From the IMG/VR virus record IMGVR_UViG_3300045594_000630: 64,000 bases of DNA; one strand, given 5' to 3'. This DNA is from a virus. Shown here piece after piece: positions 190 through 58,775 of this stretch (positions within the stretch are counted from its first letter, which is position 1; every line of letters begins with the position of its first letter). Under the pieces are notes generated by a model that saw only the letters and a program-made list of their open reading frames with translations, was not told the origin of the DNA and did not search any database. The position numbers and the translations under genes were made by a program.

Positions 190-1002
190 TCAGAACGTGA
201 ACACGATCTTGAGTCTGCAGGTGTCAAGCAGCTTCAGATTGTATGAGAGACGATCGATGTCTGACAGCATGGACTGCAACGATCTGCTGCTACCGAGTCT
301 GGATAAGATCATGCCTTCAGGTGAGATCACCCATTCAGGATGCTGCGCGTCTTGATGGTCGAAGATCTTGGGCTTCCTGCCGATCCATGCAAGAGCTGGC
401 TTCATAGATGCGGACAGGTTGAGGACAGCGTCAGACCACGCTTCAGCATAAGCGGTCTTCACGCCCTCCTTCCTCAGATCGTTCCAGGTGATGTCCTCAT
501 TCCTGATAGCATCATAGATCCCGACACTTACCGTCTTATGAATGATCGTGCTGTCCTTACTGATCCCCTCCGACCATGACGCGATCTGCTCCAGTCCACC
601 CGAGTACAAGCCCATACGATCGAGTTCACCGTCTGATGAGACGCTCCGGACGTCTGACCACCATTCGGGTCTGCGCATGATCGAATCTGCGGAAGGCCTC
701 CATATGGGCTCGAAGATCAATGGTTCTCCAGATCTGTGATGATCCCGCACCATGCGGATGAGTCGCATGCTGATGAGCGCGCGGGCTGACGACATCTCCT
801 GGGATGCAGGTGTCCGCAGTGTCTTCATGACCGGGGGATCAGTCTTGTCATGATCTTCCAGCCAGGCCACGGCTGCATTCTTGTCCGTCCAGTGTCTCAT
901 GGGCTTCCCGTTCTTATCCCTATGATTACGGCACTGCTTCGGGTCTTTCGCATAGCATTTCTCAAGACGTCCATCAGATATGACCCAGGAGATCTTCGAC
1001 AT
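190..1002 (-). CDS. hypothetical protein with N-terminal G-x-C-x-A-x-C-x-H motif
   Basis: ORF track 190..1068; start moved to the ATG at 1002 (MSKISW) because the shared Cys/His motif then lies at the N-terminus, as in three other proteins here. Confidence 0.7.
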   Translation of the reverse strand: MSKISWVISDGRLEKCYAKDPKQCRNHRDKNGKPMRHWTDKNAAVAWLEDHDKTDPPVMKTLRTPASQEMSSARALISMRLIRMVRDHHRSGEPLIFEPIWRPSADSIMRRPEWWSDVRSVSSDGELDRMGLYSGGLEQIASWSEGISKDSTIIHKTVSVGIYDAIRNEDITWNDLRKEGVKTAYAEAWSDAVLNLSASMKPALAWIGRKPKIFDHQDAQHPEWVISPEGMILSRLGSSRSLQSMLSDIDRLSYNLKLLDTCRLKIVFTF

Positions 1003-1190
1003 GGTATGAAGATATGCAGATCTGGGCTCTTGTAGGATGCGGACAAGACCTGGCGGCGATGATAGCATCTACGGCCACCGGGTACGTCTGGACTCTCGTG
1101 GACACGCCGGCTAAGTAAGATCATAAAAAGTTTTTTGGCTACGGGTCTCAACGTTTAGAGCATATCTGCAAAAGATCTTCCTGATAGATG

Positions 1191-1219
1191 TTGCATTCAT
1201 GCTAGCTCCGTGATATATT
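1191..1219 (+). promoter_or_regulatory. sigma70-type promoter upstream of the stand-alone omega-RNA
   Basis: TTGCAT-17 nt-TATATT with extended -10 TG. Confidence 0.65.
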
Positions 1220-1224
1220 ATCTA

Positions 1225-1425
1225 TTGTATTTGAAAGTTAAACAACTTGAATACAAGTTCGGGTTGAGCACCGTGTTACAGACGGAACGCTCCTGGCGTC
1301 CGAGAGGCGTCAGTCAAACCCCTGCTAGTAATCAGGGTTGACGTGAACGAGGATTCTCGGTAACGGCGACGGGTTTAACCAAGAATAACGGTTACTAGCA
1401 ACTGTCAACGTTCATAGGGAACGCT
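1225..1425 (+). ncRNA. stand-alone TnpB omega-RNA scaffold (to about 1405) plus putative guide
   Basis: About 1249-1405 is colinear with the 3' ends of both tnpB elements; conserved GCTAGTAA/TTACTAGC pseudoknot and AACTGT end; no tnpB ORF upstream. Confidence 0.8.
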
Positions 1426-1446
1426 ACTGATAAGGAACTGGAGGTC

Positions 1447-1596
1447 ATGATGGCAGCATTGCGTACAGTCAAATCAATGCGGTCGGCTCTTCAGGGCCAG
1501 TGGCCGCTTCAATCAGCTATGGATTATCAGCGCCTGAGTAGCGCAACGGCGTGCCTGATTAAGCATGTCTTTAATCCAGCGAGGATGATTGCGTAA
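1447..1596 (+). CDS. small ORF, 49 aa (MMAALRTVKS...RMIA)
   Basis: GGAGG Shine-Dalgarno before ATG; followed by a terminator; too short for the ORF track. Confidence 0.45.
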   Translation: MMAALRTVKSMRSALQGQWPLQSAMDYQRLSSATACLIKHVFNPARMIA

Positions 1597-1617
1597 CGTT
1601 GTAGATCTGTGGAAACA

Positions 1618-1658
1618 GAAACGGCGCAATCTTATCACGGGGATTGCGCCGTTCTTTG
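1618..1658 (+). terminator. intrinsic terminator
   Basis: aacggcgcaatc/gattgcgccgtt stem followed by a T-rich tail. Confidence 0.65.
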
Positions 1659-1921: not shown

Positions 1922-2459
1922 CGATGATCGCCTGATTCTCGTGACTGACTGATCGAGTGACGCTCGTGAAGATCAGCCGCGATGGTGATCTGAATAACTG
2001 AATACAGAACTGCTCGCACCAGTTGGAAGCAAAGTGCGCGACGGCCCGGGTACCGGAATGTGAAAGAACTCACCCTGCTTGGTCACGAAGATCACCATGT
2101 AGTCGATGGTGCAGTGACGGAGCGCCTGAATACAGGATCGAGCATGGGGAAGCCATCGCCCTGATTCTTGAAGGTCCGTATGGATCTGATGGAGATGTAC
2201 ATTGTACGTCAGCAACGCGATGATAACTCATGAACGGGATTACCAGCGTCATTCATGGAATGTTGACGACCCGTAGACATAAACAAGTTCCTTCAGATTA
2301 TCTTCAAAACGATGCAGATCTGCGGTCGGTGCGATGCAGATCTGAGGTCGTCGTCCCACCGGTGAGATGCACCGGCAACCGTTGATGATGCTGTGACCGC
2401 ATCATTGACAGCACATGTGGTCATCGTCGTGCTGGCGGACGTGAAACGCCAGTTCTTAT

Positions 2460-4297: not shown

Positions 4298-4298
4298 C

Positions 4299-4382: not shown

Positions 4383-4406
4383 CTCAGATCTGAAACAGAT
4401 CTGTAT

Positions 4407-12959: not shown

Positions 12960-14714
12960 TGTAAACGTTAGATACCTGTTTTTCTTGTTATTTATGTTAC
13001 CGTCGTGATAATGATTAACGAGTTGCCTTTATAATGATCTTGAATGGTATAATATTCATTATCATAGTCAAGGGGTGAATAACCGTGAGGAAGAGCAAGA
13101 TCATCAGCATGGCGCTGAGCCTTAACCTGAGCGATGCTATCATTACCCCGTCACCCGGGAAGCGGCAGCCAAGCGTTACGGAATGGCCACCTTACATCAT
13201 GAGCACCCTACAGACTCAGACGAGGGATCAGAATAAGATCATAAGGCTTAACAAGGGCTTGGATCCTGATGACATGACTACTGGTCTCAAGTACTCGGAT
13301 CCCCTCATCCGCAAGAACATGATCATCCCGTCCAGCGTCAAGGAGAGCAGGGCGAGCGCATGGTTGAACACGGCATGGAGTCTGATTAACGACCAGTTAG
13401 AGTCATGGCGCTTACTCGCTCCATGGGCTCAACGATCCAGGCTCTTTGACGAAATCCGCGAGGGACCGAGCCTCGGGTTCAAGGACTTCAGGAGGAAGCA
13501 CGGGTACGAGTACCTGGACTACCAGCTCTGGTCTAACGTGCAGAGAATGAAGAGTAAGCCAGGACTCCCCGTCGTGAAGTCAGCGAGAATCTCGTACTCC
13601 AAGATGGGAGTACAGTGCTCCGGGGCGCCATGGTACGATAGTAAGACTGGAGTCTTGCACTGGGAATGCGTGAACATCGGTCAAGCGCGCCTAGACTTCT
13701 CATGGCACGCTCCGTGGATTCGTGCACGATACCCTCGCAGGTCCCTTCAGACCGGACGGATCAGCCGAGGAACGGTCCAGGCCGTACCCATGACTAGCCA
13801 CTCATTCAGCGTGGGGTACGGGGAGGACGCGAGCGGTAAGATCCGTGCTAGCATCTCTCGTGAGAATAACCGAGTAACATTCAGCCCGGCGACGGATGAC
13901 GTACGATTCACCTTCACGATTAAGGCTACTCGGCCATCGATACGCAAGCGTGTTAAGGCGGTTGCCGGGTTTGATATCGGGATGGAGTCGCACGCGGTGA
14001 TAGCCGGCCGGCGCGTGAGCCTGAACGGCGGAACGAGCAGGCCGCTCACGCTGAGCCGGGAGGGATTATCCCTCCAGCGTCACATCATCTCGCTCCAGCT
14101 AAAAGAACGGGAGGCTCTCGCGAAGCTCTCGAGGATCATGCAGGATCATGAGCCTGTGGCGAACCCGAGGCTCGTGGAGGGTGCTATCCATCTTCACGAG
14201 AAGCTGGAGGCGCTGAAGGCCGCGATGGACTGGGTCGCCGCGGACTCAGCCGTGAAGCACTGCCGTCCGGGTGACGTGCTCGTAATGGAGGAGCTCTCAT
14301 GGTCTGGCGGTGGCGCGGTGAAGTTCCGTCACGGCCGGCAGCAGGCTCGTGTCCAGCACCTCGCCGCTAGGCGCGGTTTCAGGATGGTTAGGGTGAACCC
14401 TGCCGGATCTAGTCACGAGTGTCCATCATGCCACGCCGCGTACGATGCGGATCCGAGGAGTCACGCCTTCAAGTGCAGCTCTTGCGGGTACGCGGGGGAT
14501 AAGGATGACGCGGCCGGTTTTATCATCGCACTCCGCGGCTTGGAGAAGCTCCGCAAGAATAACAATTACGGGTTGAGCGCCGTGGTACAGACGGTCCGCT
14601 CTCGTCGTCCAAGAGGCGACGGTTATGCCCATGCTAGTAACCAGGGTCACCGCGAACGAGCATGCTCGGTAACGGCGGCGGGTCTAACCAAGAATAACGG
14701 TTACTAGCAACTGT
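12960..14714 (+). mobile_element. non-autonomous tnpB-only element, copy 1 (IS200/605/607 superfamily)
   Basis: Homology with copy 2 runs from TGTAAAC to AACTGT; no tnpA; omega-RNA overlaps the last ~46 codons. Confidence 0.85.
13085..14707 (+). CDS. tnpB: TnpB RNA-guided endonuclease, 540 aa
   Basis: RuvC FDIG / VMEEL / DKDDAA; CPSC-CSSC zinc finger. Confidence 0.85.
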   Translation: MRKSKIISMALSLNLSDAIITPSPGKRQPSVTEWPPYIMSTLQTQTRDQNKIIRLNKGLDPDDMTTGLKYSDPLIRKNMIIPSSVKESRASAWLNTAWSLINDQLESWRLLAPWAQRSRLFDEIREGPSLGFKDFRRKHGYEYLDYQLWSNVQRMKSKPGLPVVKSARISYSKMGVQCSGAPWYDSKTGVLHWECVNIGQARLDFSWHAPWIRARYPRRSLQTGRISRGTVQAVPMTSHSFSVGYGEDASGKIRASISRENNRVTFSPATDDVRFTFTIKATRPSIRKRVKAVAGFDIGMESHAVIAGRRVSLNGGTSRPLTLSREGLSLQRHIISLQLKEREALAKLSRIMQDHEPVANPRLVEGAIHLHEKLEALKAAMDWVAADSAVKHCRPGDVLVMEELSWSGGGAVKFRHGRQQARVQHLAARRGFRMVRVNPAGSSHECPSCHAAYDADPRSHAFKCSSCGYAGDKDDAAGFIIALRGLEKLRKNNNYGLSAVVQTVRSRRPRGDGYAHASNQGHRERACSVTAAGLTKNNGY

Positions 14715-23854: not shown

Positions 23855-25241
23855 AAAGGCTATCGAGTTGACAAGAGGCAAAGATCTATCGCCGGAGTTC
23901 TTGGCGAAGATGAGTGATGATGAGATCAGCAACCTGCTGAAGGAGTCATATGCTCACAAGACGCCGGCGTCTGACAGCAAAGACATCGATCTTGATGACC
24001 TGACGAACAGTCTTGAGGAGTCGATCCGTCAGCAGCGGAAGTACATTCAGGATTCATTGAACGACATCGTCACCGAGGGCGGGAGCTCGCAGGCGGCTGC
24101 CGTCAGACCTCCAAAGACGATGGCCGAAGAGCTGGCCGGCAGATCTGGTCAGGGTGTGATCGTGAACAAGACACCGGATGAGATCAATAAGATGACGGAC
24201 GAGGAGCGGAAGAAGAAGGACGCCGAGGAGCGTGCCAAGATCTTGAAGGAAGCGCTAGACTCCCTCCATAAGCTTACCGGTCTGAAGAGCGTGAAGGATC
24301 AGGTTCTGGAGTTGCAGGCTACGATAGCGGCCGAGCAGGTCAGGAAGAAGCTGGGCATGCTTGACAAGAATGATCCGGAATCTGATGACATCTCAGTGCA
24401 TCTCGCCTTGCTGGGAGCACCCGGAACGGGTAAGACCACCGTTGCCAGGATCTATGCCAAGATTCTCCGCGGCATCGGACTGTTGAACAAGGGTCAGCTC
24501 GTGGAGACGGACAGATCTGGTCTTGTGGCCGAGTACCAGGGTCAGACGGCTCCGAAGACGAATAAGGTGATCGACTCCGCTCTTGACGGGGTCTTGTTCA
24601 TTGACGAGGCTTACAATCTGAATACGGGAGATCAGGACACCTTCGGCCAGGAGGCCATCGCGACCCTCATGAAGCGGATGGAGGATGATCGTGATCGTCT
24701 AGTCGTCATCATCGCCGGGTACACGGACGTCACCGAGCACTTCCTGGACTCGAACCCGGGTCTGCGGTCAAGGTTCGTGGAGAAGATCGAGTTCCCGAAC
24801 TATATGAATGACGAGCTTGTCGAGATCGCCGTGAGGAAGGCCAAGTCCAAGGGCGTTGAGATCAGTGATGCGAACAGGAAGATACTGACCGAGTCATTCA
24901 CGAAGCTCCGTGACACGGCCGCGTTCGCTAATGGACGGACGGCACGGGTTCTTGTAGACAACGCGATGAAGGCGCAGTCCCTCCGGTTCATGGATGAGAT
25001 GAAGAAGCGTCCGGACATGACCGAGGATGAGCAGAAGAAGTTCTTGGGGTCGCTAGATGACACGGATCTGCTTGAGGCCGAATCCAAGACGATCGACATG
25101 AGTACTTCAAAGCAGTCGGCGGAGAGCAAGATGATCGATGATAAGGTCAGGATTGCCGAGCTGTTCAAGCATGCCGGGGAAGATGTCTCCAAGAAGCTGC
25201 ATTCAGACTCGAATGCGGTCAAAGAGCTGTCCGCAGAGTGA
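23847..25241 (+). CDS. AAA+ ATPase, CbbX/SpoVK/EccA family
   Basis: LTGLKSVK, GAPGTGKTTVAR, LVAEYQGQTA, LFIDEAY, SNPGLRSRF, FANGR. Confidence 0.9.
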   Translation: MSRKAIELTRGKDLSPEFLAKMSDDEISNLLKESYAHKTPASDSKDIDLDDLTNSLEESIRQQRKYIQDSLNDIVTEGGSSQAAAVRPPKTMAEELAGRSGQGVIVNKTPDEINKMTDEERKKKDAEERAKILKEALDSLHKLTGLKSVKDQVLELQATIAAEQVRKKLGMLDKNDPESDDISVHLALLGAPGTGKTTVARIYAKILRGIGLLNKGQLVETDRSGLVAEYQGQTAPKTNKVIDSALDGVLFIDEAYNLNTGDQDTFGQEAIATLMKRMEDDRDRLVVIIAGYTDVTEHFLDSNPGLRSRFVEKIEFPNYMNDELVEIAVRKAKSKGVEISDANRKILTESFTKLRDTAAFANGRTARVLVDNAMKAQSLRFMDEMKKRPDMTEDEQKKFLGSLDDTDLLEAESKTIDMSTSKQSAESKMIDDKVRIAELFKHAGEDVSKKLHSDSNAVKELSAE

Positions 25242-31148: not shown

Positions 31149-33551
31149 ATGGCAAGAAGGAAACGTAAGAACTCAGAACTCATCCAGGAGTCTCAGCAGA
31201 GATTCAAGAACGTGGCGAAGAACATCGATGAAGTCCAGGTGCAGGACTGGCTAAAGACCAACTTCATCCCCTATGCATGGTCGTATAACCTGGACCGTGC
31301 GCTTGTTGACGTATCCGGTCTGAAGCCGGTGCAACGGCGCATACTGTATACGATGTACAAGCAAGGCTTGTCACCGTCTGCGAACAGATCTAAGGTGGCC
31401 ACACTTGGTGGCGCCGTCTTGCATCTGCATCCCCACGGTGACTCGTCAGTGGTCGACGCACTTAAGAACATGGCCAGATCTCACATCTTCCGGGTACCGC
31501 TCATTGACGGCAAGGGTGACTTCGGAGCGCCGGGGAAGCCGGGCGCCGCAGGAAGATACATCGAGGCGAGACTGTCCAGGGCCGCATGGCTGAACGTGAC
31601 TGACATCGGCATGAATGCCGTCAAGATGATACCGAACTATGACAACACGACGACAGAGCCGGCGTACATCCCGGTCAAGTGGCCCGTTGGTGTCATCAAT
31701 GGCGGATCTGGAATGGCCGTGGCCTATGCGTCGAACATCCCATCGCATAATCCGGGTGAGATCATGCGGGCATGCATCCAGCTGGTGAGGGATCCGAGGA
31801 CATCAGACAAGAAGCTTGAATCGATCATCAAGGGACCTGACTTCAAGATGGGTGGTCTGGTCACCAGCATCGACGGCGTCCATGACTACTTGGAGACAGG
31901 TGCGGGCACGTTCACCCTCAGAGCTAAGTATGAAGAGGAGACGATAGCCCGAGGTGCTACCAGGGTCGAGTTCTATGAGATCCCATTCGGAACATACCCG
32001 GAGAAGATCTTGGACTCCATCCAGAAGCAGATGAGCAACGGGAAGCTCCAGGACATCTCCGAGTACAAAGATCTGTCCGATCGTGAGCATCCCATCAGGA
32101 TCGTGGTCATCATCAAGCCAGGCGCTCAGAAGAAGAAGGCTATCGAGGACATCTTCAAGTACACGCCATTGCAGACCAGATTCTCCGTGAACATGACGAC
32201 GATCATGAAGAACAGGCCAACGCAGTCGTCCATGAAGGACATTCTTCTTGACTTCATCGAATTCAGGAAGCTCTGCGTGACGCATATTCTGAATTACGAT
32301 CTTGCCAGGAAGAAGGATAGGGCGCATCTTATTGATGGCATTCTCAAGGTTCTGCTTGACATTGACGCGGCTATAACGATCATCAGGAGATCTGATGATG
32401 CTGAATCTGCGAAGACCAAGTTGGAGAAGAGATTCAAGATCGATGACCAGCAGGCCGATTACGTGCTCTCGCTCCAGCTGCGCCGCCTCACGAGGATGGA
32501 CAGCGTTGCCCTCAAGAATGAAGACAAGCAGCTGTCCGCTGATGTGGCCGGCATTGCTGACACGCTGAATGATGAGGCCAAGTTCAAGGAGTACCTCATC
32601 AATGAGTTCAAGGACACGATGAAGATCATCGATGATCCGAGGTGCACTGAGATCAATGGCGTGACGGAGGAGGAGTTCAAGGCTGCGCAGACGGCCGCGG
32701 CTCGTAAGATCAAGGCTGCCAGCAAGGGTGCGTCCACGTATCTTGTCCAGCTGTCCGACGGATCCATCATGAAGAGTCTTGAGAAGATACCGACCTCGGT
32801 GGAGACGCATACTGCCGGCAAGGTGCGGTCGATCCCAATCAGATCTGTCAGCAAGCTCGCTGGCAATGCAAGCATCGCTCTCATAGGATCTGACGGATCT
32901 GCCTACACGTCGAGTCTGCTGTCCATGGATGACGGGAAGCAGGTCAAGACCAAGTCTCTTGGTGTACTGCCGTCAGGGGTCACATCACAGGCTATCATCG
33001 GTCCAGGGCATTCCACAGTACTGATCTGCACGCGCAAGGGCAAGGTGCGGCACGTCAATGTGGACAATGACGGCAAGTGGACGAGCGAACCTGTGGTGAG
33101 ACTAGACGATGGTGACACTATCGTAGGCGCCGTCGACACTACAAAGATCGTGAAGAATTCGACTGCTATCATCGTGACGAAGAAGGGTCGTGCGCTCAGA
33201 TTCAGGATAGACGACATCAGGCCATGCGGAGCCGGTTCACAGACCATCGCTGGTATGAATCTGGGGAAGGACGATGAAGTCGTCAGCATCGTTGCCGCCA
33301 GACCTGACGCTCATAGTCTGGTCACGACGTCGACCGTCACCATCAAGACCACGTCCCTAGATGACATCACGGTCCATGGACGCGGTGGCTCTGGCGTCGC
33401 TGTCCATAACCTGCTAGCGACTGACGGCATCACGCAAGCAGCCGTTGACCCGGTGATCGTCCACGGGCACACGATCGTGGACATCCCATCACCGTCATCA
33501 AGATCTGCACGGCCCGCTCCGCTCCAGAAGGGGTCGTTGCTATCCATCTGA
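31149..33551 (+). CDS. type IIA topoisomerase A subunit (GyrA/ParC)
   Basis: GLKPVQRRILY, HPHGD, catalytic AAGRYIEARL, pinwheel-like C-terminus. Confidence 0.95.
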   Translation: MARRKRKNSELIQESQQRFKNVAKNIDEVQVQDWLKTNFIPYAWSYNLDRALVDVSGLKPVQRRILYTMYKQGLSPSANRSKVATLGGAVLHLHPHGDSSVVDALKNMARSHIFRVPLIDGKGDFGAPGKPGAAGRYIEARLSRAAWLNVTDIGMNAVKMIPNYDNTTTEPAYIPVKWPVGVINGGSGMAVAYASNIPSHNPGEIMRACIQLVRDPRTSDKKLESIIKGPDFKMGGLVTSIDGVHDYLETGAGTFTLRAKYEEETIARGATRVEFYEIPFGTYPEKILDSIQKQMSNGKLQDISEYKDLSDREHPIRIVVIIKPGAQKKKAIEDIFKYTPLQTRFSVNMTTIMKNRPTQSSMKDILLDFIEFRKLCVTHILNYDLARKKDRAHLIDGILKVLLDIDAAITIIRRSDDAESAKTKLEKRFKIDDQQADYVLSLQLRRLTRMDSVALKNEDKQLSADVAGIADTLNDEAKFKEYLINEFKDTMKIIDDPRCTEINGVTEEEFKAAQTAAARKIKAASKGASTYLVQLSDGSIMKSLEKIPTSVETHTAGKVRSIPIRSVSKLAGNASIALIGSDGSAYTSSLLSMDDGKQVKTKSLGVLPSGVTSQAIIGPGHSTVLICTRKGKVRHVNVDNDGKWTSEPVVRLDDGDTIVGAVDTTKIVKNSTAIIVTKKGRALRFRIDDIRPCGAGSQTIAGMNLGKDDEVVSIVAARPDAHSLVTTSTVTIKTTSLDDITVHGRGGSGVAVHNLLATDGITQAAVDPVIVHGHTIVDIPSPSSRSARPAPLQKGSLLSI

Positions 33552-39240: not shown

Positions 39241-39374
39241 TGAGATCCAGCTATGTTCAGAAGCATAGGCCCTGCTAGTGTTCTAGACGCATTCGGAACG
39301 GCACCATGCGAGAATCACCGATCTAGTATGACGTTACTTCTTGAACACTACCGCGTCTTCAGATTCCAGATCTG
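39241..39374 (+). repeat. 134-bp dispersed repeat, copy A
   Basis: Gapless 97/134 match (hand count) to the reverse complement of 53059-53192; first 23 nt identical. Confidence 0.85.
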
Positions 39375-39403
39375 TTGACTAGATGGTAACATGATGTTAG
39401 CAT
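39375..39403 (+). promoter_or_regulatory. sigma70-type promoter directly abutting repeat A
   Basis: TTGACT-17 nt-TAGCAT. Confidence 0.55.
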
Positions 39404-45338: not shown

Positions 45339-47108
45339 GTGACAAGAAAAAGAAATGCGGACAAGATCCAGGGGCGAATGATGTTCTCTGGAGTCCAGCT
45401 GCCGAAGATCGATTACAGATTTGATGCAGCGTATCCCATTGAGAACGTGAAGATACCGCAGACGCTTGACGGATCTGAATACGATCCGGAGAAGGGCGTC
45501 AGGAAGTATGACGAGGAGGCTGACGAGGCACTTAAATCCAGCATGAAGAAGTTCGGGTTCATTGACCCCATCGTGCTGTCAGGTGATGGCGTCGTCATCC
45601 ACGGGCTTCACAGATTCCTCATTGCAGTCCAGCTCCAGCAGGCCACGATACCTGCCATCATCGTGAAGAACTGGGATCATACGGTCGATGAGACGCAGTT
45701 CTTCAACATCATGTCGAATAAGCTGAATGACTGGTCCACATGGCTAGCTCCGAATGTTGACCGTGTTCTCAGGAATCTTGACGGAGGCGTGAAGAGCAGG
45801 GTCATCCGTGGGGACGATGGAACATTCGTGGTCGTGGCCGATGAGTCCGGCGAGTACAGGGATCTTGCCAGGAAGCTCGGACTGTTCATTGATGTGATCC
45901 CCCGGCAGCTGTGCGCGTCTGCCGTCGATCTGCTTACACTCGCGAAGATGCGGGTTAAGACCCTAGGCCGCCGGTACCAGTACAATGACGAACAGATCTT
46001 GTACATCGAGACGCTGAGGGATCAGATAGATCAGTACAGGCGCAAGGCCGTAGAGGTCGGCATCGACACGTCAGGGAACGTCGCGCAGAAGCTCCAGCAG
46101 GAGACCACGTGGAATGAGAACATCGAGAAGGATGGTATCAAGGTCGCCAGGATCGTGCTGCTGCATTCGATCGGCGTGCCGAACGCAGAGATCGCTAAGA
46201 TCGTTGATGTTCCCGTGGACAATAAGGCTACGCGGAAAGCGGCCAAGGACGCTGGTCTTGACACGTTCATGGAACAGGTCACCGTCGAGAACGCGCTGCT
46301 CAGATCCTCGAAGCGAGAATTTGATCCATTAGCGTCATACGGGTACTGGATCGATAAGACTCTGCGTGAACGGTACGAGGTTCTTAAGGACGTTGATGTA
46401 AGATCTGCGCTTGCTCATCTTGACCAGTACCGTGTAGACGTCAAGGTCACCGTGAAGACAGATGAGATCACTCCGCCGGACAAGAAGCTCGTGCTTGACT
46501 CCGAGGAGGCGAAGGATGAGTTCAATGCTGCCGTTGACCTCATTGAAGCCAAGCTCCCGGACAAGGAGCTGCCACGGATCGTAGTGGAGGATTGGGTCCG
46601 CTGGCCGCAGACTCTGAAGTTCTATGCGAACGAATGCTTCAAGGATGTCCTGCTGGTGGACAAGAAGCTGCATCCGGAGAACATCTCCGCCAAGACCCCG
46701 ATGGACGTGAAGACGACGCGACAGACGACGGACAAGGCTTGCGCTAAGACTGAATGGAATGAGATCTGGTGGCTTGACAAGGTGAATTCAGGTGAGGTCA
46801 AGATACCGCTCATCGAACCTGACTACACGATCGTCGCTGATAGGGATGATCTGAGTGAGGATGAAGCCCTGGCCATCGTCACCGAAGATGCGAACAAGAG
46901 ACTCGACGCGGAGGTGGATAAGCTCCGTAAGGCCGAGAACGTCAAGTCTAGCGCCATCTATGACAAGCTCGTCGCCAGGGACTTCAATAAGATACTGATC
47001 GGTATCCGGAAGAAGTATGAGAAGGGACCGATCAACCTGTTCTCGATCGGTAAGAACAGGGATGGGAACGTTGACGATGACCCTGACGCTAAGGGCGTGA
47101 AGTCATGA
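45339..47108 (+). CDS. protein with N-terminal ParB/Srx-like domain
   Basis: LKSSMKKFGFIDPIVL...VIHGLHRFLIA...IPAIIV. Confidence 0.7.
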   Translation: MTRKRNADKIQGRMMFSGVQLPKIDYRFDAAYPIENVKIPQTLDGSEYDPEKGVRKYDEEADEALKSSMKKFGFIDPIVLSGDGVVIHGLHRFLIAVQLQQATIPAIIVKNWDHTVDETQFFNIMSNKLNDWSTWLAPNVDRVLRNLDGGVKSRVIRGDDGTFVVVADESGEYRDLARKLGLFIDVIPRQLCASAVDLLTLAKMRVKTLGRRYQYNDEQILYIETLRDQIDQYRRKAVEVGIDTSGNVAQKLQQETTWNENIEKDGIKVARIVLLHSIGVPNAEIAKIVDVPVDNKATRKAAKDAGLDTFMEQVTVENALLRSSKREFDPLASYGYWIDKTLRERYEVLKDVDVRSALAHLDQYRVDVKVTVKTDEITPPDKKLVLDSEEAKDEFNAAVDLIEAKLPDKELPRIVVEDWVRWPQTLKFYANECFKDVLLVDKKLHPENISAKTPMDVKTTRQTTDKACAKTEWNEIWWLDKVNSGEVKIPLIEPDYTIVADRDDLSEDEALAIVTEDANKRLDAEVDKLRKAENVKSSAIYDKLVARDFNKILIGIRKKYEKGPINLFSIGKNRDGNVDDDPDAKGVKS

Positions 47109-47196: not shown

Positions 47197-48423
47197 ATGG
47201 ATACAGTCTTCATACCAAGCAAGGGCAGATCGTCTAATTGCAGTACGCATCGGAGTCTAGAGGCGTTCGACATGCATGACTGGGTGTACGTGGTGGAGCC
47301 CGACGATTACTGGGCATACATCCACCGACTCCGTGAAGACGGTGTCTACATGCCAGAGACTCACGTGTACTCATTTGATGTCGAAAGATTCAAAAGCCCT
47401 AGAAGCGCTGAGCACCCGGACGGATTCGACTACTGTGATGATCTTGGCTGGAAGCCAGGTCTGACAACAGGACCGGGTCCGGCTAGGAACGCCCTGCACC
47501 AGCTGGCCATTGACATGGGTCTTAAGCACTACTGGATGATGGATGATGACATCCAGAGCTTCTCGATCGACGCCTTCTACTTCCAGAAGAACATCTGGAC
47601 GAAAGACATTGCGAATGGAGGGGTGAAGGAGCGCCGGATCAGTCTGATCGACACGTTTGATCTGTATCAGAGATTCCTTGACAAGTTCAGTAATGTCGGC
47701 ATAGCCGAGCTTGACAAGCAAGGCCTTGTCCAGAATCATCGTAAGAACAGCCAGTTCTCAGTGAACTGCAAGGCTTACTCATGCATCAGGTTCAGAACCG
47801 ATGGCCCGAAGATACCGTGGAGATCACGGTTCAATGATGATGTGACGATCTCCCTAGACTATGAGAAGCGCGGATTCGTGAACGTATCTAGTAAGATCAT
47901 GGCGTACCAGACACCTGACACGCAGAGACAGAAGGGTGGCATGACGGAGGCGTTCCATCAGGAGGGGACGCTTCGTAAGGTCAAGTATCTTGTCAAGCAG
48001 TATCCGGAGACCACATTCGCCATCTTGAAGTTCGGAAGGATCCATCACTTCGTGGACTACTCGAAGTTCCGTCAGCGTCTGAGCAGGAATCCGGGCGTCG
48101 AGAATCTTAAGGATCTGCTCCCGGAGTCTTACGGCCCGTACAGATCGTTCATCCCGTATCTTGACGGGGCGACGACCGAGGCTGAGAAGGATCTGCATTG
48201 GAAGAATGTGGACGATGAGCTCCGCAGAGAGTACATTCTTGAACAGCGGAAGATCTATGGTGACTTCTTCGGCGCTGGGAACAAGGCGACCTATGACAAG
48301 AGGATCATCCCCGGATTCATCTCACCGTCTGCCGTGAATGACAACGATGATGAAGATCAGGATATTACAGACAATGAAGACATTGCTGACAGCACTGATG
48401 GCAGCGAGGAAGCACCATTCTAA
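47197..48423 (+). CDS. GT-A glycosyltransferase, TET-associated/GREB1-like type
   Basis: VFIPSKGR, VVEPDDY, GPARN, WMMDDDI, NDDV, QKGG. Confidence 0.7.
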   Translation: MDTVFIPSKGRSSNCSTHRSLEAFDMHDWVYVVEPDDYWAYIHRLREDGVYMPETHVYSFDVERFKSPRSAEHPDGFDYCDDLGWKPGLTTGPGPARNALHQLAIDMGLKHYWMMDDDIQSFSIDAFYFQKNIWTKDIANGGVKERRISLIDTFDLYQRFLDKFSNVGIAELDKQGLVQNHRKNSQFSVNCKAYSCIRFRTDGPKIPWRSRFNDDVTISLDYEKRGFVNVSSKIMAYQTPDTQRQKGGMTEAFHQEGTLRKVKYLVKQYPETTFAILKFGRIHHFVDYSKFRQRLSRNPGVENLKDLLPESYGPYRSFIPYLDGATTEAEKDLHWKNVDDELRREYILEQRKIYGDFFGAGNKATYDKRIIPGFISPSAVNDNDDEDQDITDNEDIADSTDGSEEAPF

Positions 48424-49383: not shown

Positions 49384-50670
49384 ATGGCGAAGTATCATAT
49401 CGGTAAGGATGGGGAGCCACATCTCTGCAACGCGGAGAAGAGACCATGCCCGTTGAAGCAGGCTGACGGCAGTCCGGTTCCCCATTACGGATCAATGGAG
49501 CAAGCGTACGAGGCTCTGTACGTGAAGGAATCACACTCCCTCAATGACGCGATCAGGTACCAGAAGAAGTATGAGAATTGGGCTGACAAGGATCAGGACG
49601 TCCAGGACATCATTGACGATGCATTCGCCGGTAAAAGATTCCAGATGTTCAAGACTGCTAACGCTGAGTACAGTGTCCCCGTGAAGACGGTCAGACAGTC
49701 GAAGGCGACGAGGGAACTCACGGCGGGGATGCATGACAGGTTCAAGAGCGTCAGATCTGCGCAAGAGGCAATGACCCCTGACGGCAAGCTGGCCGCGCAG
49801 TACGCATCAATGACCGCAATCGAATCCGACATGAAGCGGCTGAAGGCAAGTACAGCGCAGGAATCCCTCGCTAACGTTCTTTACGTGAACAGCAGGGCTG
49901 ATGGAGCATTCCAGGTACAGGTCAGCGCTTCAATAGACAAGAACAAGATCAAGAGCGATCTTGACATGAGTGACGCTGATCTTGAGAAGTTCTATGATGT
50001 GAGCACCGGTGATTACTCGGTGTCCAGCGTCAAGAAGGCGTTCAACGATTCTATTGCTGACGCTATACCGGCAGGAACCAGGGGAGCTCCGGCGAAGCGG
50101 AAGGCCGCTTGGGACGCTAGCGGGCTTGCCGTCGATGAGGTCACGTACAGCCCTGACAAGAAGGCTCTTGAAGCCGTGGCCAGTGCTCACAATGATGCTG
50201 TCATCAGTGAGCAGTTCGATGACGACAAGCTCGGAACCATGTGGGGTTCAGCGAAGCGTGCAGCCCTCTGCGAGCTGGGCGTCCAGCACCAGATCTTGAA
50301 GGATGAGATATCCGCTCGTGAGGATGCGCTGAGGAAGCAGGGCGCATCAGAGTCTGGTGATCCCAACGCTGTATTCAAGAAGCTGTCAGAATCAGACTCT
50401 GACGGTCTGAAGTTCAAGGAGCGACATTCAGCCGTACTGAATGAGAAGAACGTGGATGCATTCGCCAGGCAGCATGGTATTGATGCGAAGACGCTCCGCA
50501 AGACATCAAAGTCATTCACTCTTGACAAGTTCAAGGAGTTCGCAAAAGACAAGAAGATACCGACGTTCAAGTATCTGAAGCCGCAACGGGCCGTCCATCT
50601 TCGCTACATGAAGAATCAGAAGGCGTACGATGATCACACCGTGGCAGCCAGGGATGTTGTCAATGCATGA
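49384..50670 (+). CDS. hypothetical protein with N-terminal Cys/His motif
   Basis: KYHIGKDGEPHLCNAEKRPCP...HY. Confidence 0.8.
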   Translation: MAKYHIGKDGEPHLCNAEKRPCPLKQADGSPVPHYGSMEQAYEALYVKESHSLNDAIRYQKKYENWADKDQDVQDIIDDAFAGKRFQMFKTANAEYSVPVKTVRQSKATRELTAGMHDRFKSVRSAQEAMTPDGKLAAQYASMTAIESDMKRLKASTAQESLANVLYVNSRADGAFQVQVSASIDKNKIKSDLDMSDADLEKFYDVSTGDYSVSSVKKAFNDSIADAIPAGTRGAPAKRKAAWDASGLAVDEVTYSPDKKALEAVASAHNDAVISEQFDDDKLGTMWGSAKRAALCELGVQHQILKDEISAREDALRKQGASESGDPNAVFKKLSESDSDGLKFKERHSAVLNEKNVDAFARQHGIDAKTLRKTSKSFTLDKFKEFAKDKKIPTFKYLKPQRAVHLRYMKNQKAYDDHTVAARDVVNA

Positions 50671-51159: not shown

Positions 51160-52909
51160 ACAGTTGCTAGTAACCGTTATTCTTGGTTAGACCCGCCGCC
51201 GTTACCGAGCATGCTCGTTCACGGTGGCCCTGGTTACTAGCATGGGCATGACCGTCGCCTCTCGGACGACGAGAGCGGACCGTCTGTACCACGGCGCTCA
51301 ACCCAAACTTGTTATTCTTGCGGAGCTTCCCCAGGCCGCGCAGCGCGAGAGTGAAGCTAGCCGCGTCATCCTTATCCCCCGCGTAACCGCACCTCACGCA
51401 CTTGAATGAGTGCGATCGGGGATCAGCATCATACGCGGCGCGGCATGACGGGCACTCGTGACTCGACCCGGCAGGATCCACCCTCACCATCTTGACGCCA
51501 CGCCTATCGGCGAGGTGCTGGACACGAGCCTGCTGCCGCCCATGACGGAACTTCACCGCGCCGCCGCCAGCCCATGAGAGCTCCTCCATTACGAGCACGT
51601 CACCCGGGCGGCAGTGCTTCACGGCTGAGTCAGCAGCGACCCAATCCATCGCATCCTTCAAGAGCTCCAGCTTCTCGTGAAGATGGATAGTACCCTCCAC
51701 GAGCCTCGGGTTCGCCATGGGCTCATGATCCTGCATGATCCTCGAGAGCTTCGCGAGAGCCTCCCGTTCTTTTAGCTGGAGCGAGATGATGTGACGCTGG
51801 AGTGATGATCCCTCCCGGCTCAGCGTGAGCGGCCTGCTCGTTCCGCCGTTCAGGCTCACGCGCCGTCCGGCTATCACCGCGTGCGACTCCATCCCGATAT
51901 CGAACCCGACGACCGCATTGACGCGCTTGCGTATCGACGGTGCCGTGGACTTGATCGTGAAGGTGAATCGTACGTCGTCCGTCGCCGGGTTGAATGACAC
52001 GGTGTTAACAGTACGTGAGATCTTGGCGCGGATCTTACCAGCCACGTCTTCCTTGTATCCTACGCTGAATGAGTGGCTAGTCTTAGGGACGGCCTGGATC
52101 GTTCCCCGGCTGATCCTGCCAGCCTGGAGCGAGCGGCGGGGGTACCGGGCACGGATCCACGGAGCGTGCCATGCGAAGTCTAGGCGAGCTTGACCGATGT
52201 TCACGTTATCCCAGTGCAAGACTCCAGTCTTACGATCGTACCATGGCTTATTAGAGATCTGCATGGCCATCTTGGAATACGCGATCCGCGCTGACTCCAC
52301 GACGGGGAGTCCTGGCTTACTCTTCATTCTCTGCACGTTAGACCAGAGCTGGTAGTCCAGGTACTCGTACTCGTGCTTCTTCTTGAAGTCCTTGAAGCTT
52401 AATGGGCCTTTATCAGAACGGGCCTCATCAAAGAGCCTGGATCGTTGAGCCCATGGCGCGAGTAAGCGCCATGCTTCTAATTGATCGTTAATCAGGCTCC
52501 ATGCCGTGTTCGACCATGCTTCCGTCCTGCTCTCCTTGACACTTGGAGGGATGATCATGTTCTTGCGAATCAGGGGATCCGAGTACTTGAGGCCAGTAGT
52601 CATGTCATCAGGGTCCAGGCCCTTATTAGCGCTTATGATCTTATTCTGATCCGCCGTCTGGGTTTTCAGAATACTCACGATGTAAGATGGCCAGTCCGTC
52701 ACGCCCGGTTGCCGCTTCCCGGGCGACGGGGTGATGATCGCGCCGCTCAGATTAAGGCTAAGTGCCATGCTGATGGTCTTACGCTTCCTCACGATTATTC
52801 ACCCCTTGACTATGATAATGAATATTATACCATTCAATATCATTATAAGGGTAACTCATTATCACGGAGGTAACATCAATAACAAGAAGACAGGTATCTA
52901 ATGTTTACA
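51160..52909 (-). mobile_element. non-autonomous tnpB-only element, copy 2
   Basis: Same TGTAAAC left end and AACTGT right end as copy 1. Confidence 0.85.
51167..52792 (-). CDS. tnpB: TnpB RNA-guided endonuclease, 541 aa
   Basis: Close paralog of 13085-14707; RuvC D/E/D and zinc finger intact. Confidence 0.85.
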   Translation of the reverse strand: MRKRKTISMALSLNLSGAIITPSPGKRQPGVTDWPSYIVSILKTQTADQNKIISANKGLDPDDMTTGLKYSDPLIRKNMIIPPSVKESRTEAWSNTAWSLINDQLEAWRLLAPWAQRSRLFDEARSDKGPLSFKDFKKKHEYEYLDYQLWSNVQRMKSKPGLPVVESARIAYSKMAMQISNKPWYDRKTGVLHWDNVNIGQARLDFAWHAPWIRARYPRRSLQAGRISRGTIQAVPKTSHSFSVGYKEDVAGKIRAKISRTVNTVSFNPATDDVRFTFTIKSTAPSIRKRVNAVVGFDIGMESHAVIAGRRVSLNGGTSRPLTLSREGSSLQRHIISLQLKEREALAKLSRIMQDHEPMANPRLVEGTIHLHEKLELLKDAMDWVAADSAVKHCRPGDVLVMEELSWAGGGAVKFRHGRQQARVQHLADRRGVKMVRVDPAGSSHECPSCRAAYDADPRSHSFKCVRCGYAGDKDDAASFTLALRGLGKLRKNNKFGLSAVVQTVRSRRPRGDGHAHASNQGHRERACSVTAAGLTKNNGY

Positions 52910-53192: not shown

Positions 53193-53407
53193 TCCGATTG
53201 TAGGTGTCCTGTCTGACGGCCTTCTCGTAAGCTTCCGACGGTTCAGCTGAAAGATCTCGTTCAGATCAATCTGCGGCTTCGGCAATTGCATGATTATGAT
53301 CACAATCATCTTCTAAATGGATGCAGATCTGACTTCAGATTGAGAACAGATCTGTATTAATCACTACCCGGCGCGTTGAAGCCAGATCGGTGATATACTG
53401 GATGTAC

Positions 53408-55716: not shown

Positions 55717-55728
55717 GATGCCCTCCGG

Positions 55729-57519
55729 TCAGTCATCATCATCGGAACGACGTCTGCGCGTGATCCTTGCCCGATTCGTGAGAACGTACTGATAGCACGA
55801 TTCATCATCAGCGAACATGGTGTCGAGAAGAACGTCCTTACCGATCTCATGCTGGATCCTGTTCCTTGCCGACTTAGATCCGGCGCCCGCCAGAGCAGCA
55901 TTCAGATCCGTGACCCGCTTCTCATTCTCCATGAGTTCTATGCGAGCCTTCTTCGCACGCTTCCTGACCGCGGCGTCAGCACGCCTGGCGTCAGGGTCAA
56001 TGAGGAACGCTTCATCGGGCACCCCATCGCCCTCCATGATCACATCGTTGATCGAACGGCACCGGCTCAGAGCTACATATCCGAGCCCCTTCTGGAAGCA
56101 CCTGCTGAGGTCAATGATCGCACCATCTAGCGTCTGACCCTGCGACTTATGGACGGTGATAGCCCATGCAAGCCGGAGCGGAACATAGCTCACCGCCGCG
56201 TCCGTGACCTCGATCTCCTTGATGACCGGAAGTCCGTCATCATCAACGATCTTACGAGCTTCCACGTGAGTCTTCTTCACCTGAGCGTACCCGATGGTGA
56301 CGGTCTTGAACTCACTGCTGAGTTCATCAGACATCTCATCGCTGATCTGCATGTCCGAGGGTCCATTGTTCATCCGCACCTGGATGATTGGGATCATCTT
56401 ACCGTCAGCTCCCATCTCATCACCGAGCTTGGTCACCACGCCTAGGGATCCGTTCACGTATCCTGGAACCGCGCCATTTGATGTCAGCATGACGACAGCA
56501 CCCTCCTTGAGAGCAAGCGGCGAAAGGCGCCCGTTCTTGATGAGCTCCTTACAGTCGTCAGGGTCACCATGCCGTTTAAGATTATAGACATGATCTTTAC
56601 CGGGGATCGCATCAAGACGGGACTGGTTGTATGCATCCACGCTCCGGTTGATCGTCCGCAGGTGGGTATAGACCTTGTCGTCATCTTTGCCGGCATTGAA
56701 CCTTGGATAGATCATCTTACGAAGACTGCTAAGATCTTCACCGTCACGGATACCGTTCAGCAGATCGTTCAGAACCGGATCGTCAGATCTCCGCACCCGG
56801 TCAAGATAGCAGAACTTGAATCCCCCAGACGAAAAGATCTTATGACCATCAGGATCACGCGCCCGGAAACAGTATCCGCCGTCTACAGGGTTGCCATCAG
56901 AGTCAAGCTGATGGGAGTCCACGGGAGGGAGCTGCAGGAAGTCCCCCACCAGTACGATCTGCATGCCTCCGAATGGTATGCTCTTACCCTTGGCCTTCCT
57001 GCAGGCCGCATCAAGATTGGATAGGAAGTACGCTGGAAGCATGCTGACCTCATCAACGATCAGCACGTCAGTGTCCTTGATACGGCGCTTCGCATTGATC
57101 CACACGTGCTTCTGCTTGTCGGTCATCCTGGTCTCATCGAATGGATCCACGCTGATACCAAGACCTGACCATGAATGGATCGTACGGCCGAAGATCAGCG
57201 CGGCTGCCGCACCTGTACTAGCCGTCACCGCGACGTTCAGACGGTGAGAGTCAGAGTCTAATCTGCCGGAGAATCCGTGAATGATCTCCTGGTACTTATC
57301 GATCACCCATGACTTGCCTGCACCGGCAGCGCCACACAAGATCACATTATCCCCATGCAGCAGCCAGTACAAGGCTTCCATCTGGCTCGTGTACTCGCTC
57401 TTCGCCAGCTCGTCGGCACTATCGAATTCCGGAATGATCTTATGGAGGCCCTTCGGATAATGCGGATCTTCGGTCTCGTCGATCTCCCTGTCATTGAACA
57501 GATCTTCCATCATTATCAT
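55729..57519 (-). CDS. PIF1/RecD-like SF1B helicase
   Basis: GAAGAGKS, IVDEVSM, VGDFLQLPPV, AITVHKSQGQT, YVALSR. Confidence 0.92.
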   Translation of the reverse strand: MIMMEDLFNDREIDETEDPHYPKGLHKIIPEFDSADELAKSEYTSQMEALYWLLHGDNVILCGAAGAGKSWVIDKYQEIIHGFSGRLDSDSHRLNVAVTASTGAAAALIFGRTIHSWSGLGISVDPFDETRMTDKQKHVWINAKRRIKDTDVLIVDEVSMLPAYFLSNLDAACRKAKGKSIPFGGMQIVLVGDFLQLPPVDSHQLDSDGNPVDGGYCFRARDPDGHKIFSSGGFKFCYLDRVRRSDDPVLNDLLNGIRDGEDLSSLRKMIYPRFNAGKDDDKVYTHLRTINRSVDAYNQSRLDAIPGKDHVYNLKRHGDPDDCKELIKNGRLSPLALKEGAVVMLTSNGAVPGYVNGSLGVVTKLGDEMGADGKMIPIIQVRMNNGPSDMQISDEMSDELSSEFKTVTIGYAQVKKTHVEARKIVDDDGLPVIKEIEVTDAAVSYVPLRLAWAITVHKSQGQTLDGAIIDLSRCFQKGLGYVALSRCRSINDVIMEGDGVPDEAFLIDPDARRADAAVRKRAKKARIELMENEKRVTDLNAALAGAGSKSARNRIQHEIGKDVLLDTMFADDESCYQYVLTNRARITRRRRSDDDD

Positions 57520-57584
57520 TTAATTTGTCTCCATGTCCGCAGAATGCTTACATGATCATAGTACCATCAGTGCATGTGGATCGG

Positions 57585-58775
57585 TCAGACGAGAGTGATC
57601 ATCGTCCTGTCGACCATGAATTCAGGGCTGATAGCCGAGTATGATGTCAGACCGAATCTTCCCACGAAACTGCTGAACACGGTCATGACCCCATCCCTAG
57701 GGTCAATCGGGGCACGCTCATCGTCAGAGCCCGCTATCCATCGCTGGCTCGCGTCTAGCGACCCGCTGATGATCCTTGACTGCATCAGCTGGACGACCCC
57801 GTTCAGATGGGCGATCTTACCGTCAGATACCAGAATGACCCTCGGACCTGACTCCCCGCTGATGGCAAGCAGTGTCTTCAGATAGGCCATGAAAGCGTGA
57901 GCATCCGCCGTCGTCCCCTCCATGGGGTCATACCCGTTCTTGATGATCTGACTGATCTTCTCGATGACGACGGGAGGACCTGCGGGGGAGATCATCAGAC
58001 CGAGGTCAGATCCGGCGGCAAGGAACATCGGAGCGGCCTTCATGGTGATGGGATCCCTCCGCAGCCGATCCGTGAACGCATAGACGTCCTCATCCTGACC
58101 CTGTGAGACCAAGATGCAGACAGCGTAGGCAAGATCGTCATCGAATGATGACCGTATGGATTCGATCGTCAGTCCGCTCTCCCCAAGCGCCTTCTCATGC
58201 AGTATGGTGAGAGCGAGTATCGTAGCAGTCTTGGCTGCATCGTCCTCAGATCTGGAATCAATGAACTTCACGGTCTTGCCGGCAGCGTCGTCACCAATGA
58301 TCGGACTGACGATCTCAACCGCTCTCTCATATGATCCATCTGCGAGGGACGGCTCCGTTGGCGTGTACTCACCTTCCGTCAGCAGCTGCTCCCATCCTTC
58401 AAGTATGATCGTCCCTGACGGATGATCATCATCGGTAGACTTCGGATCGCTAGGATTCATGATCTTACCCGATATGGATGACACGATGATTGATCGTAGC
58501 CTGTCCGCTCCGTTATCTATGGTGAGCTTGTCCCCATCCGGGTTCAGAAGATCATCATTCGACAAGATGATCATGTCTTCATCAAGGGCTTCCAATGCTT
58601 TCATGACGCTGCGAGCCGCATCGATGCGGCCAGACCCCGCGATAAGAATATTGCTCTTACCGTCAAGATCGATCGTCCAGCTGGTCTCATTCTGCTGGAA
58701 TCTGAGTCCATGATTGATGCCGCTGCTTTTCCGCGGCTTCAACGGCTTGTCTTTCTTCTTTCCAAATCCGAACAT
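57585..58775 (-). CDS. hypothetical protein
   Basis: 396 aa; leaderless after TGATATAAT. Confidence 0.75.
   Translation of the reverse strand: MFGFGKKKDKPLKPRKSSGINHGLRFQQNETSWTIDLDGKSNILIAGSGRIDAARSVMKALEALDEDMIILSNDDLLNPDGDKLTIDNGADRLRSIIVSSISGKIMNPSDPKSTDDDHPSGTIILEGWEQLLTEGEYTPTEPSLADGSYERAVEIVSPIIGDDAAGKTVKFIDSRSEDDAAKTATILALTILHEKALGESGLTIESIRSSFDDDLAYAVCILVSQGQDEDVYAFTDRLRRDPITMKAAPMFLAAGSDLGLMISPAGPPVVIEKISQIIKNGYDPMEGTTADAHAFMAYLKTLLAISGESGPRVILVSDGKIAHLNGVVQLMQSRIISGSLDASQRWIAGSDDERAPIDPRDGVMTVFSSFVGRFGLTSYSAISPEFMVDRTMITLV

Follow-up and report, generated by a model that had tools for sequence, protein, structure and literature searches.

Iterated palindromes in cyanobacteria and elsewhere

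The closest described systems to the one that we discuss here are the highly iterated palindromes (HIPs) of cyanobacteria. HIP1 (GCGATCGC) and its alternates are 8-bp palindromes with a GATC core that occur about once per kb, and the alternates track methyltransferase specificity (Elhai 2015, PMC4390886). HIP1 has been found to be under selection, without a gene-level function, and with a long-range periodicity of 10-90 kb (Xu, Lawrence and Durand 2018, PMC5861425). Here we analyze another palindrome, CAGATCTG, in a stretch of 64,000 nucleotides from the IMG/VR virus record IMGVR_UViG_3300045594_000630 (the window, from now on), which includes 43 exact copies of it between positions 729 and 58254. 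No other 8-mer in the window is commoner.

What are HIPs for? The question has been debated for about 30 years, and repair, nucleoid structure, and DNA uptake have all been proposed. A recent report describes a correlation between HIP1 abundance and families of type IV secretion systems (T4SS), and proposes a role in DNA uptake (Rodriguez-Cruz et al. 2026, PMC13756078). HIP1 is also reported to bring about a methylation-dependent improvement of transformation (PMC13756078; bioRxiv 10.1101/2024.09.10.611283). For phages, a study describes both genomes enriched in the site of their own methylase and the avoidance of restriction sites (Rusinov et al. 2018, PMC6286503). All well-studied HIPs are old and phylum-wide in cyanobacterial chromosomes, and thus cause and effect are hard to separate.

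Other short words are read by other proteins. Noc and KorB are relatives of ParB that bind scattered palindromes. The known sites of ParB, Noc, KorB, MatP, and SlmA are 12-16 bp long, with tens of them per replicon; those of Noc and KorB as well as parS have 13-16 bp, number between a few and about 70 per replicon, and are mostly intergenic, or tolerated where they occur by chance. Chi, the DNA uptake sequences (DUS), and the uptake signal sequences (USS) are asymmetric words with a bias in strand or orientation.

A palindrome in excess over all null models

Base composition predicts 0.95 copies of CAGATCTG in the window, and the 43 present are a 45-fold excess. This bears out an earlier note, made from the letters alone, that had claimed an excess of about 40-fold (at least 40 copies, with about one expected). 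Six of the seven positions that it listed as examples are indeed copies; the other one, 24151, is not, and the nearest copy is at 24140. The dinucleotide expectation is 3.4-3.5 copies (a 12-fold excess), and 100 shuffles produced a maximum of 11 and never 43. Higher-order Markov models expect 6.1 copies (order 3, a 7-fold excess), 19.3 copies (order 5), and 32.5 copies (maximal order).

Could the excess come from the codons? Using a gene model of open reading frames plus tRNA genes, 28 copies are in coding sequence (CDS). If synonymous codons are permuted within genes, 2.8 CDS copies are expected (z=15.7), and if the order of the codons is permuted the expectation is 1.6 (z=20.3). A stricter null that keeps the protein, the codon usage, and all dinucleotides expects 9.3 (z=7.7, with a maximum of 18 in 200 replicates). 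In the single gene that we checked, this strictest null altered about one third of the codons; it thus probably retains many real copies, and is conservative. The excess of CAGATCTG thus persists under the codon-aware nulls that had been suggested as a check, while that of plain GATC nearly vanishes (788 copies vs. 747 expected).

The reading frames of the copies are AGA-TCT (16), GAT-CTG (11), and CAG-ATC (1), the other 15 being non-coding; the AGA-TCT and NCA-GAT-CTG framing that had been noticed by eye is therefore correct. The same preference can be seen in the dipeptides: 32 of the 104 Arg-Ser dipeptides are coded AGA-TCT (3.5 expected), and so are 59 of the 132 Asp-Leu dipeptides by GAT-CTG (21 expected). 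As a dipeptide, Arg-Ser is also overrepresented (104 vs. 73 expected), and Ser-Arg is not.

The spacers amount to 10.9 kb and have 15 copies, compared with 0.43 (Markov-1), 1.3 (Markov-3, an 11-fold excess), and 6.4 (Markov-5) using expectations derived from the spacers themselves. Because the excess is also found in spacers, the signal is not a codon artefact. The density of CAGATCTG is in fact 2.4 times higher in spacers (1.38/kb) than in genes (0.57/kb). The 1.8 kb of sequence that we recovered past the end of the window add two further copies. The excess is real, and CAGATCTG is a lineage-specific iterated palindrome at the DNA level, where it has clearly been shaped by selection or by a directed process.

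The word is eight base pairs long

If the two half-sites flanking the GATC core were independent, we would expect 16.2 copies of CAGATCTG (the 43 observed are 2.65 times as many, p=2.6e-8), and it is the only NNGATCNN word that greatly exceeds such a prediction. The remaining 15 palindromic NNGATCNN words have between 0 and 22 copies each, and the runner-up, TGGATCCA, has 9 copies vs. 2.6 expected (p=0.002). In the flanks of CAGATCTG, positions -1, -3, and -4 have no preference, from which we take the word to be 8 bp long; at position -2 the preference is marginal (p=0.046). There are deviations at -5 (G, p<0.001) and at -6 (p=0.02), probably due to codon phase. Apart from the CAGATCTG copies, AGATCT shows little excess. 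Sequences around the copies are unrelated to each other, and thus CAGATCTG is not a dispersed mobile repeat. One-letter variants counted on both strands number 41 and 43 for positions 1 and 2, and 7 and 15 for positions 3 and 4, a distribution that is confounded by a grammar favouring GATC.

Gaps between copies look random (coefficient of variation 0.88, vs. 0.96 for random placement), regular spacing was not found within the 64 kb, and the relative position inside genes is uniform (Kolmogorov-Smirnov p=0.73). A placement of this kind has been reported for HIP1 too (PMC5861425). Table 1 gives the close pairs of copies with the other features. We considered CAGATCTG as a promoter or terminator element and rejected it, because its position relative to predicted promoters and terminators is inconsistent. 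As RNA, the closest pair, between the tRNA-Tyr and tRNA-Trp genes, could form a predicted 8-bp stem with an AAA loop.

Table 1. Features of the window discussed in the text
Feature	Position	Strand	Remarks
Span of the 43 CAGATCTG copies	729..58254	.	mean gap 1369 bp; CDS 28, spacers 15, tRNA/tmRNA genes 0
Close pair of CAGATCTG	2315..2344	.	22 bp apart; spacer upstream of tRNA-Asn
Close pair of CAGATCTG	4385..4403	.	11 bp apart; fills tRNA-Tyr/tRNA-Trp spacer
Close pair of CAGATCTG	53324..53354	.	23 bp apart; 53-76 bp upstream of tmRNA gene
Spacer copy of CAGATCTG	39367..39374	.	abuts predicted -35 hexamer (TTGACT at 39375); single such case
Synonymous gain, AAA ATPase (ETDRSGLV)	24512..24519	+	GAC-AGA-TCT-GGT here; relatives CGA-TCA, CGG-TCT, CGC-TCC
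Amino-acid-changing gain, GyrB	29435..29442	+	relatives Arg-Asn; here Arg-Ser (AGA-TCT)
Amino-acid-changing gain, GyrA	32840..32847	+	relatives Thr/Val/Leu-Ser; here Arg-Ser
589-aa protein with ParB/Noc/KorB-like N-domain, beside glycosyltransferase	45339..47108	+	ParB_N E=1.9e-4 (below Pfam cut-off); phrog_620 2e-14
TET-associated-type DNA glycosyltransferase	47197..48423	+	PF20691 1.6e-22; phrog_842 6e-31
TnpB insertion sequence (IS), copy A	12960..14714	+	no CAGATCTG; GATC 8.0/kb; GC 0.565; ends not abutting CAGATCTG
TnpB IS, copy B	51160..52909	-	no CAGATCTG; GATC 12.6/kb; ends not abutting CAGATCTG
TGCCGGCA copies	5832, 10428, 11611, 11707, 15390, 19276, 32813, 38043, 43386, 56688, 58277, 63177		

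Copies gained one by one in a giant mobile element

The window has 51 tRNA genes and a tmRNA gene. It encodes gyrase B and A, an NAD-ligase, a sigma-70-like factor, HU, a dUTPase, and TelA, together with VirB11-like and TraG/VirD4-like ATPases, Tad-like proteins, ParA-like ATPases, a helix-turn-helix protein (25931-26680), and a GmrSD-like protein. For its GyrA, the recorded contig has 349,703 bp, and the relatives are on contigs of 437-727 kb. The element is also represented by a 262-kb contig of JGI sample 3300046047. The other assemblies of it that we compared are 100% identical, with no strain variants among them. The source is a giant (at least 350 kb) extrachromosomal mobile element.

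Six relatives were compared with the window using the ratio of observed to expected counts (O/E) for GATC and for runs of four A or T (Table 2). CAGATCTG was counted in L001, L003, and L004. We observed no iterated palindromic octamer of any kind in the six relatives.

Table 2. CAGATCTG, GATC, and A/T runs in the window and its relatives
Sequence	GyrA identity	Length compared	CAGATCTG copies	GATC O/E	A4/T4 O/E
Window, syntenic 22 kb		22.0 kb	17	4.03	0.10
Window, whole		64.0 kb	43	3.93	0.18
L003	65%	16.6 kb	1	2.55	0.24
L001 (491-kb contig, same JGI sample)	62%	22.4 kb	0	1.93	0.43
L004 (536-kb clade)	54%	22.4 kb	0	0.43	0.71
L150, L151, L152	48-49%	~22.5 kb each		0.77-1.16	1.28-1.58

We aligned 15 in-gene copies of CAGATCTG with their orthologues in three syntenic relatives. 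Where an Arg-Ser or a Pro-Asp-Leu is conserved, the relatives use codons other than the ones that form CAGATCTG in this element. An example is the AAA ATPase of Table 1, in which none of the three relatives has the AGA-TCT pair. Other copies change the protein: besides the two gyrase subunits (Table 1), in the ligase the Arg-Gln of the relatives becomes Arg-Ser at the CAGATCTG copy. Overall, 28 of the 79 positions (35%) at which CAGATCTG is synonymously permissible are filled here, vs. 1 of 61 in the three relatives. These alignments show that the copies arose singly by point substitution, some of them synonymous and some changing an amino acid. Copies were gained in spacers and in every usable reading frame, under a pressure at the DNA level that overrides codon preference and alters residues in gyrase and ligase. 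This pressure acts on the entire symmetric word of 8 bp rather than on the half-sites.

Neither of the two TnpB elements has a copy, as the earlier note said, but 2.3 copies would be expected in their 3.5 kb, so that the zero is not significant. These two IS copies are 86% identical in both DNA and protein, and their GATC density and GC content (0.565) differ modestly from those of the backbone. The possibility that CAGATCTG is a target or a transposon-associated motif (TAM) of this IS200/IS605-TnpB type of element is rejected, as the IS ends at 12960 and 52909 are flanked differently, and without the word.

Comparison with HIP1

The analogy with HIP1 that the earlier note had drawn holds at the level of the pattern. 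CAGATCTG is an 8-bp palindrome with a GATC core, dispersed over genes and spacers at about 1 per 1.5 kb (HIPs: 1 per 1-1.5 kb). Like HIPs, it is a lineage-specific word gained by substitution and not by transposition, with variants at the outer positions and no gene-level placement.

There are also differences. The word is another one, and HIP1 itself (GCGATCGC) has only 2 copies in the window. HIPs are found in cyanobacterial chromosomes, but CAGATCTG is found on a giant mobile element without sign of a cyanobacterial host. Its AGATCT core is little enriched alone, and no cognate methyltransferase was found in the 64 kb. The excess over Markov-3 is 7-fold, compared with the 15- to 300-fold quoted for HIP1. 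In summary, the element matches HIPs in those features of the pattern that could be compared, and it fails the taxonomic one. ParB-type site arrays, Chi/DUS/USS words, VSP-driven bias, and IS targets were also compared, and CAGATCTG departs from each of these in at least one defining trait.

Outside this family, a screen of genome and viral contigs for three clustered copies of CAGATCTG returned at least 120 and 20 matches, respectively, and nearly all those inspected were tandem coding repeats. The single dispersed case among the matches listed was a Dysgonomonas metagenome-assembled genome with 96 copies in 7.8 Mb, about 55 times sparser. A literature search for CAGATCTG returned only incidental primer or sequence matches among those listed, and one for the sample identifiers returned none. 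A megablast of the window against phages returned no match, and neither did GyrA against viral contigs, nor TnpB against genome and metagenome contigs.

What reads the word?

We propose, with a probability of roughly 0.4, that CAGATCTG is a HIP-like mark linked to an enzyme, of this lineage or of its host, that modifies or cuts DNA at specific sequences. Symmetry over 8 bp would suit recognition by a sequence-specific enzyme that acts as a dimer. The reader or writer would most likely be a DNA methyltransferase, either acting as an orphan or belonging to a restriction or base-modification system, and it would have been acquired by the lineage or the host after the split from the relatives. Densely spaced modified sites would in that case be maintained to label the DNA of the element as 'self', and such a label could serve to protect it, to discriminate strands or self when DNA is repaired or recombined, or to handle DNA in transfer. 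Similar roles are proposed for HIP1 and its alternates. We count the lineage-private character of CAGATCTG in favor of the enzyme, likening it to the alternate HIPs that track methyltransferase specificity. Within the family, GATC O/E spans from avoidance (0.3-0.43) to 3.9, and a swing like this is of the kind expected from restriction and modification pressures. Phages enriched in, or avoiding, methylase sites are similar in that selection acts on short palindromes in mobile DNA, and this family shows both effects; the difference is that the plain GATC excess here is mostly composition, and the specific signal is the 8-mer.

Which enzymes does the element have? The glycosyltransferase of Table 1, going by its profile matches, shows a capacity of the element for DNA base modification. 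The 589-aa protein encoded beside it has 11 homologues, whose sources, where named, are all metagenomic. A model built from them, of modest quality (mean predicted local distance difference test, pLDDT, of 60), is all-helical after residue 150. The only structural matches are to the N-domains of ParB, Noc, KorB, and sulfiredoxin, with high probability and weak E-values, and the search found no structural match for the C-terminal 440 residues. We considered whether a methyltransferase could be hidden in this protein, and rejected it: the phrog and PADLOC 'methyltransferase' matches are confined to the ParB-like N-domain, and the rest is all-helical. On this model, the protein is a candidate DNA-binding reader, and by its fold it is not a methyltransferase.

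Several observations weigh against an enzyme-linked mark. We looked for a methyltransferase, a restriction enzyme, or a TET/JBP oxygenase in the 64-kb window of this element of at least 350 kb, and none was detected. To our knowledge, no enzyme has the 8-bp specificity CAGATCTG. The one-mismatch neighbours of CAGATCTG are not depleted, transition neighbours being 41 vs. 16.4 expected and transversion neighbours 65 vs. 53, and the version of the HIP model based on biased repair is thus left without support. An origin by biased repair of the Vsr type (very short patch, VSP) is rejected for the same reason, as the neighbours that deamination would produce are not depleted, and in spacers the GATC/GATT ratio equals the AATC/AATT ratio; the enriched transition neighbours resemble a fringe of sites being lost or just emerging. 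Finally, close pairs of CAGATCTG are in excess (3 vs. 0.43 expected, p=0.008), all of them in spacers upstream of RNA genes, which together with the 2.4-fold density in spacers agrees with a binding protein no less than with an enzyme.

That protein is the strongest rival. CAGATCTG would be a dense binding array for a dimeric protein encoded by the element (for example the 589-aa ParB-like protein, or a helix-turn-helix one), whose role would be to coat or compact the DNA, to partition it, or to regulate it globally. The cooperativity between the two half-sites of the palindrome, the higher density in spacers, and the one copy that abuts a predicted -35 are all as a binding array would have them. 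So are the close pairs (p=0.008), as their distances of 11, 22, and 23 bp are roughly whole helical turns and they lie upstream of RNA genes. The window also provides a ParB-N protein with a helical body, and ParA-like ATPases. The resemblance to the ParB-family sites, such as the Noc-binding sites (NBS), the KorB operator (OB), and parS, extends to their being palindromic and to the helical-turn spacing of some pairs. On the other hand, CAGATCTG has 8 bp without extension and occurs about once per 1.5 kb, compared with 12-16 bp and tens of sites per replicon for ParB-type sites. It is mostly in genes (65% of the copies), placed uniformly and actively written into them, at the cost in some cases of residues in gyrase and ligase, and there is no consistent relation to promoters. 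Moreover, homologues 62-63% identical to the ParB-like protein are on contigs of 491,046 and 419,707 bp, and 491,046 bp is the same size as the contig of L001, which is motif-free in the 22 kb examined. With a homologue apparently on the contig of a motif-free relative, the protein is weakened as the cause of a lineage-specific word. We consider the binding array unlikely.

Does the word need a reader at all? GATC is the commonest tetramer in the window, with 975 copies and an O/E of 3.93, a layer that the earlier note overlooked. Its density is 16.2/kb in genes and 15.3/kb in spacers, and it drops to the background level of 4.5/kb in tRNA genes. Under Markov-2 the O/E is 1.17, and under the dinucleotide-preserving codon null the excess is nearly gone, as described above. 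Genes and spacers have a common dinucleotide grammar, with AA/TT at 0.75, TA at 0.56-0.76, AT at 1.4-1.5, and GA/TC at 1.3-1.45. The 3.9-fold excess of GATC thus results mainly from the avoidance of AA/TT and TA, that is, from isolated A-T steps flanked by G/C. The GATC layer is separate from the CAGATCTG signal, and mostly a lower-order by-product. A word of caution is in order: a four-fold excess of GATC can be almost wholly a by-product of dinucleotide grammar!

CAGATCTG could then be a by-product too, of this grammar (AA/TT/TA avoidance plus GA/TC and AT excess) and of a mutation bias acting on common codon pairs. All dinucleotide steps in CAGATCTG are neutral or favoured, the avoided AA/TT and TA being absent from it. 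The loss of the GATC excess under the dinucleotide-preserving null (788 vs. 747), the proximity of the maximal-order Markov expectation (32.5 vs. 43), and a second octamer, TGCCGGCA, that seems largely codon-driven (see below) point in the same direction. But CAGATCTG exceeds the strictest null threefold, even with many real copies surviving in that null, and it exceeds Markov-3 in non-coding DNA 11-fold. It is also 2.65 times commoner than predicted from its half-sites, and none of the other 15 palindromic NNGATCNN words has a comparable excess. Besides, L003 has much of the same grammar (GATC O/E 2.55, A-tract 0.24), and only one CAGATCTG in 16.6 kb. A word without a reader is in our view quite improbable.

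Least probable of all is a signal for recombination, uptake, or transfer, Chi-like or DUS/USS-like, read by a host RecBCD/AddAB or by the T4SS/Tad-like machinery of the element: like the words that mark 'own' DNA, CAGATCTG is short, its kilobase density (about 1 per 1.5 kb) is within the USS/DUS range, the window encodes VirB11-like, TraG/VirD4-like, and Tad-like proteins, and for HIP1 the T4SS correlation and the methylation-dependent gain in transformation are reported (PMC13756078; bioRxiv 10.1101/2024.09.10.611283). However, the sequence shows no connection between the word and the secretion genes, and we identified no competence genes of the uptake type in the window. Moreover, CAGATCTG is a perfect palindrome, and Chi, USS, and DUS are asymmetric.

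A young HIP?

Returning to the HIP-like mark and its enzyme, a more specific proposition, which we hold tentatively and as the less probable outcome, is that a giant extrachromosomal element has evolved a HIP of its own de novo since its split from relatives with 62-65% identical gyrase, filling about one third of the synonymous positions and altering conserved enzymes on the way. If this were true, HIP-type 'genome tagging' would not be a cyanobacterial oddity but a general and fast-evolving strategy. Its driver would be a reader or writer that the mobile element carries, perhaps a methyltransferase with 8-bp specificity or a modification-dependent system. It would also provide a small, recent, and tractable case for HIP function. 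The HIP-like signal described here, which is found on a mobile element, is young (absent or near-absent in syntenic relatives), was built by substitution, and has part of its cost visible in conserved proteins. Should the remainder of the contig or the host turn out to encode a reader of CAGATCTG, a comparison between this lineage and its sisters free of the motif would directly test what drives a palindrome of this kind.

Other observations

Runs of A and T are nearly absent. AAAA has an O/E of 0.08 in genes, compared with 0.43 in spacers, and 93% of Lys codons are AAG and 93% of Phe codons are TTC. Across the family the A-tract O/E drops (0.18, 0.24, 0.43, and 0.71, with 1.3-1.6 in the most distant relatives) while the GATC O/E climbs (3.9, 2.6, 1.9, 0.43, and about 1, in the same order). 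The scarcity could be mutational, or it could be an escape from silencers that bind AT tracts.

Other words are frequent in the window. The palindromic octamer TGCCGGCA has 12 copies (1.2 expected under Markov-3), 5 of them in spacers; all 7 coding copies are GCC-GGC (Ala-Gly, including the Walker A GAGKT), and the word seems largely codon-driven. TGAGATCA has 28 copies and is strand-specific, with 24 on the coding strand vs. 7 for the complement, a bias consistent with the codon pairs GAG-ATC or AGA-TCA. The 16-mer ATGAGATCAGATCTGG, at 27349, 30808, and 38351, is translated as EIRSG/A in each of three proteins that are unrelated, two of them being GyrB and the ligase.

Two genes without a family match, at 49384-50670 (+) and 14794-15360 (+), have low GATC densities (7.8 and 8.8/kb, vs. 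about 16) and more A/T runs; they were perhaps acquired recently, as the IS copies may have been. For the 428-aa product of the first one, searches of families, the PDB, and the Atlas found no match. Past the end of the window, the short-read contigs of two or more runs (SRR16378848 and SRR16378896; L008:10493-12280) stop after about 1.8 kb, and others stop in similar places, pointing to repeated or variable sequence at this site.

Some relatives differ from the window in other ways. The widespread 520-536 kb clade of the family (L004:1-22403, L005:1-18324) avoids GATC (O/E 0.30-0.43) and CTAG (0.13), the opposite of what we see in the window, which suggests a host defence there that cuts GATC. 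In a distant relative on a 727-kb contig, a gene that weakly matches a Mom-like DNA-modification family (PF25680) is inserted between gyrB and gyrA (L151:8380-9906), and the same relative also carries many DUF4379 genes and an IS605 TnpB.

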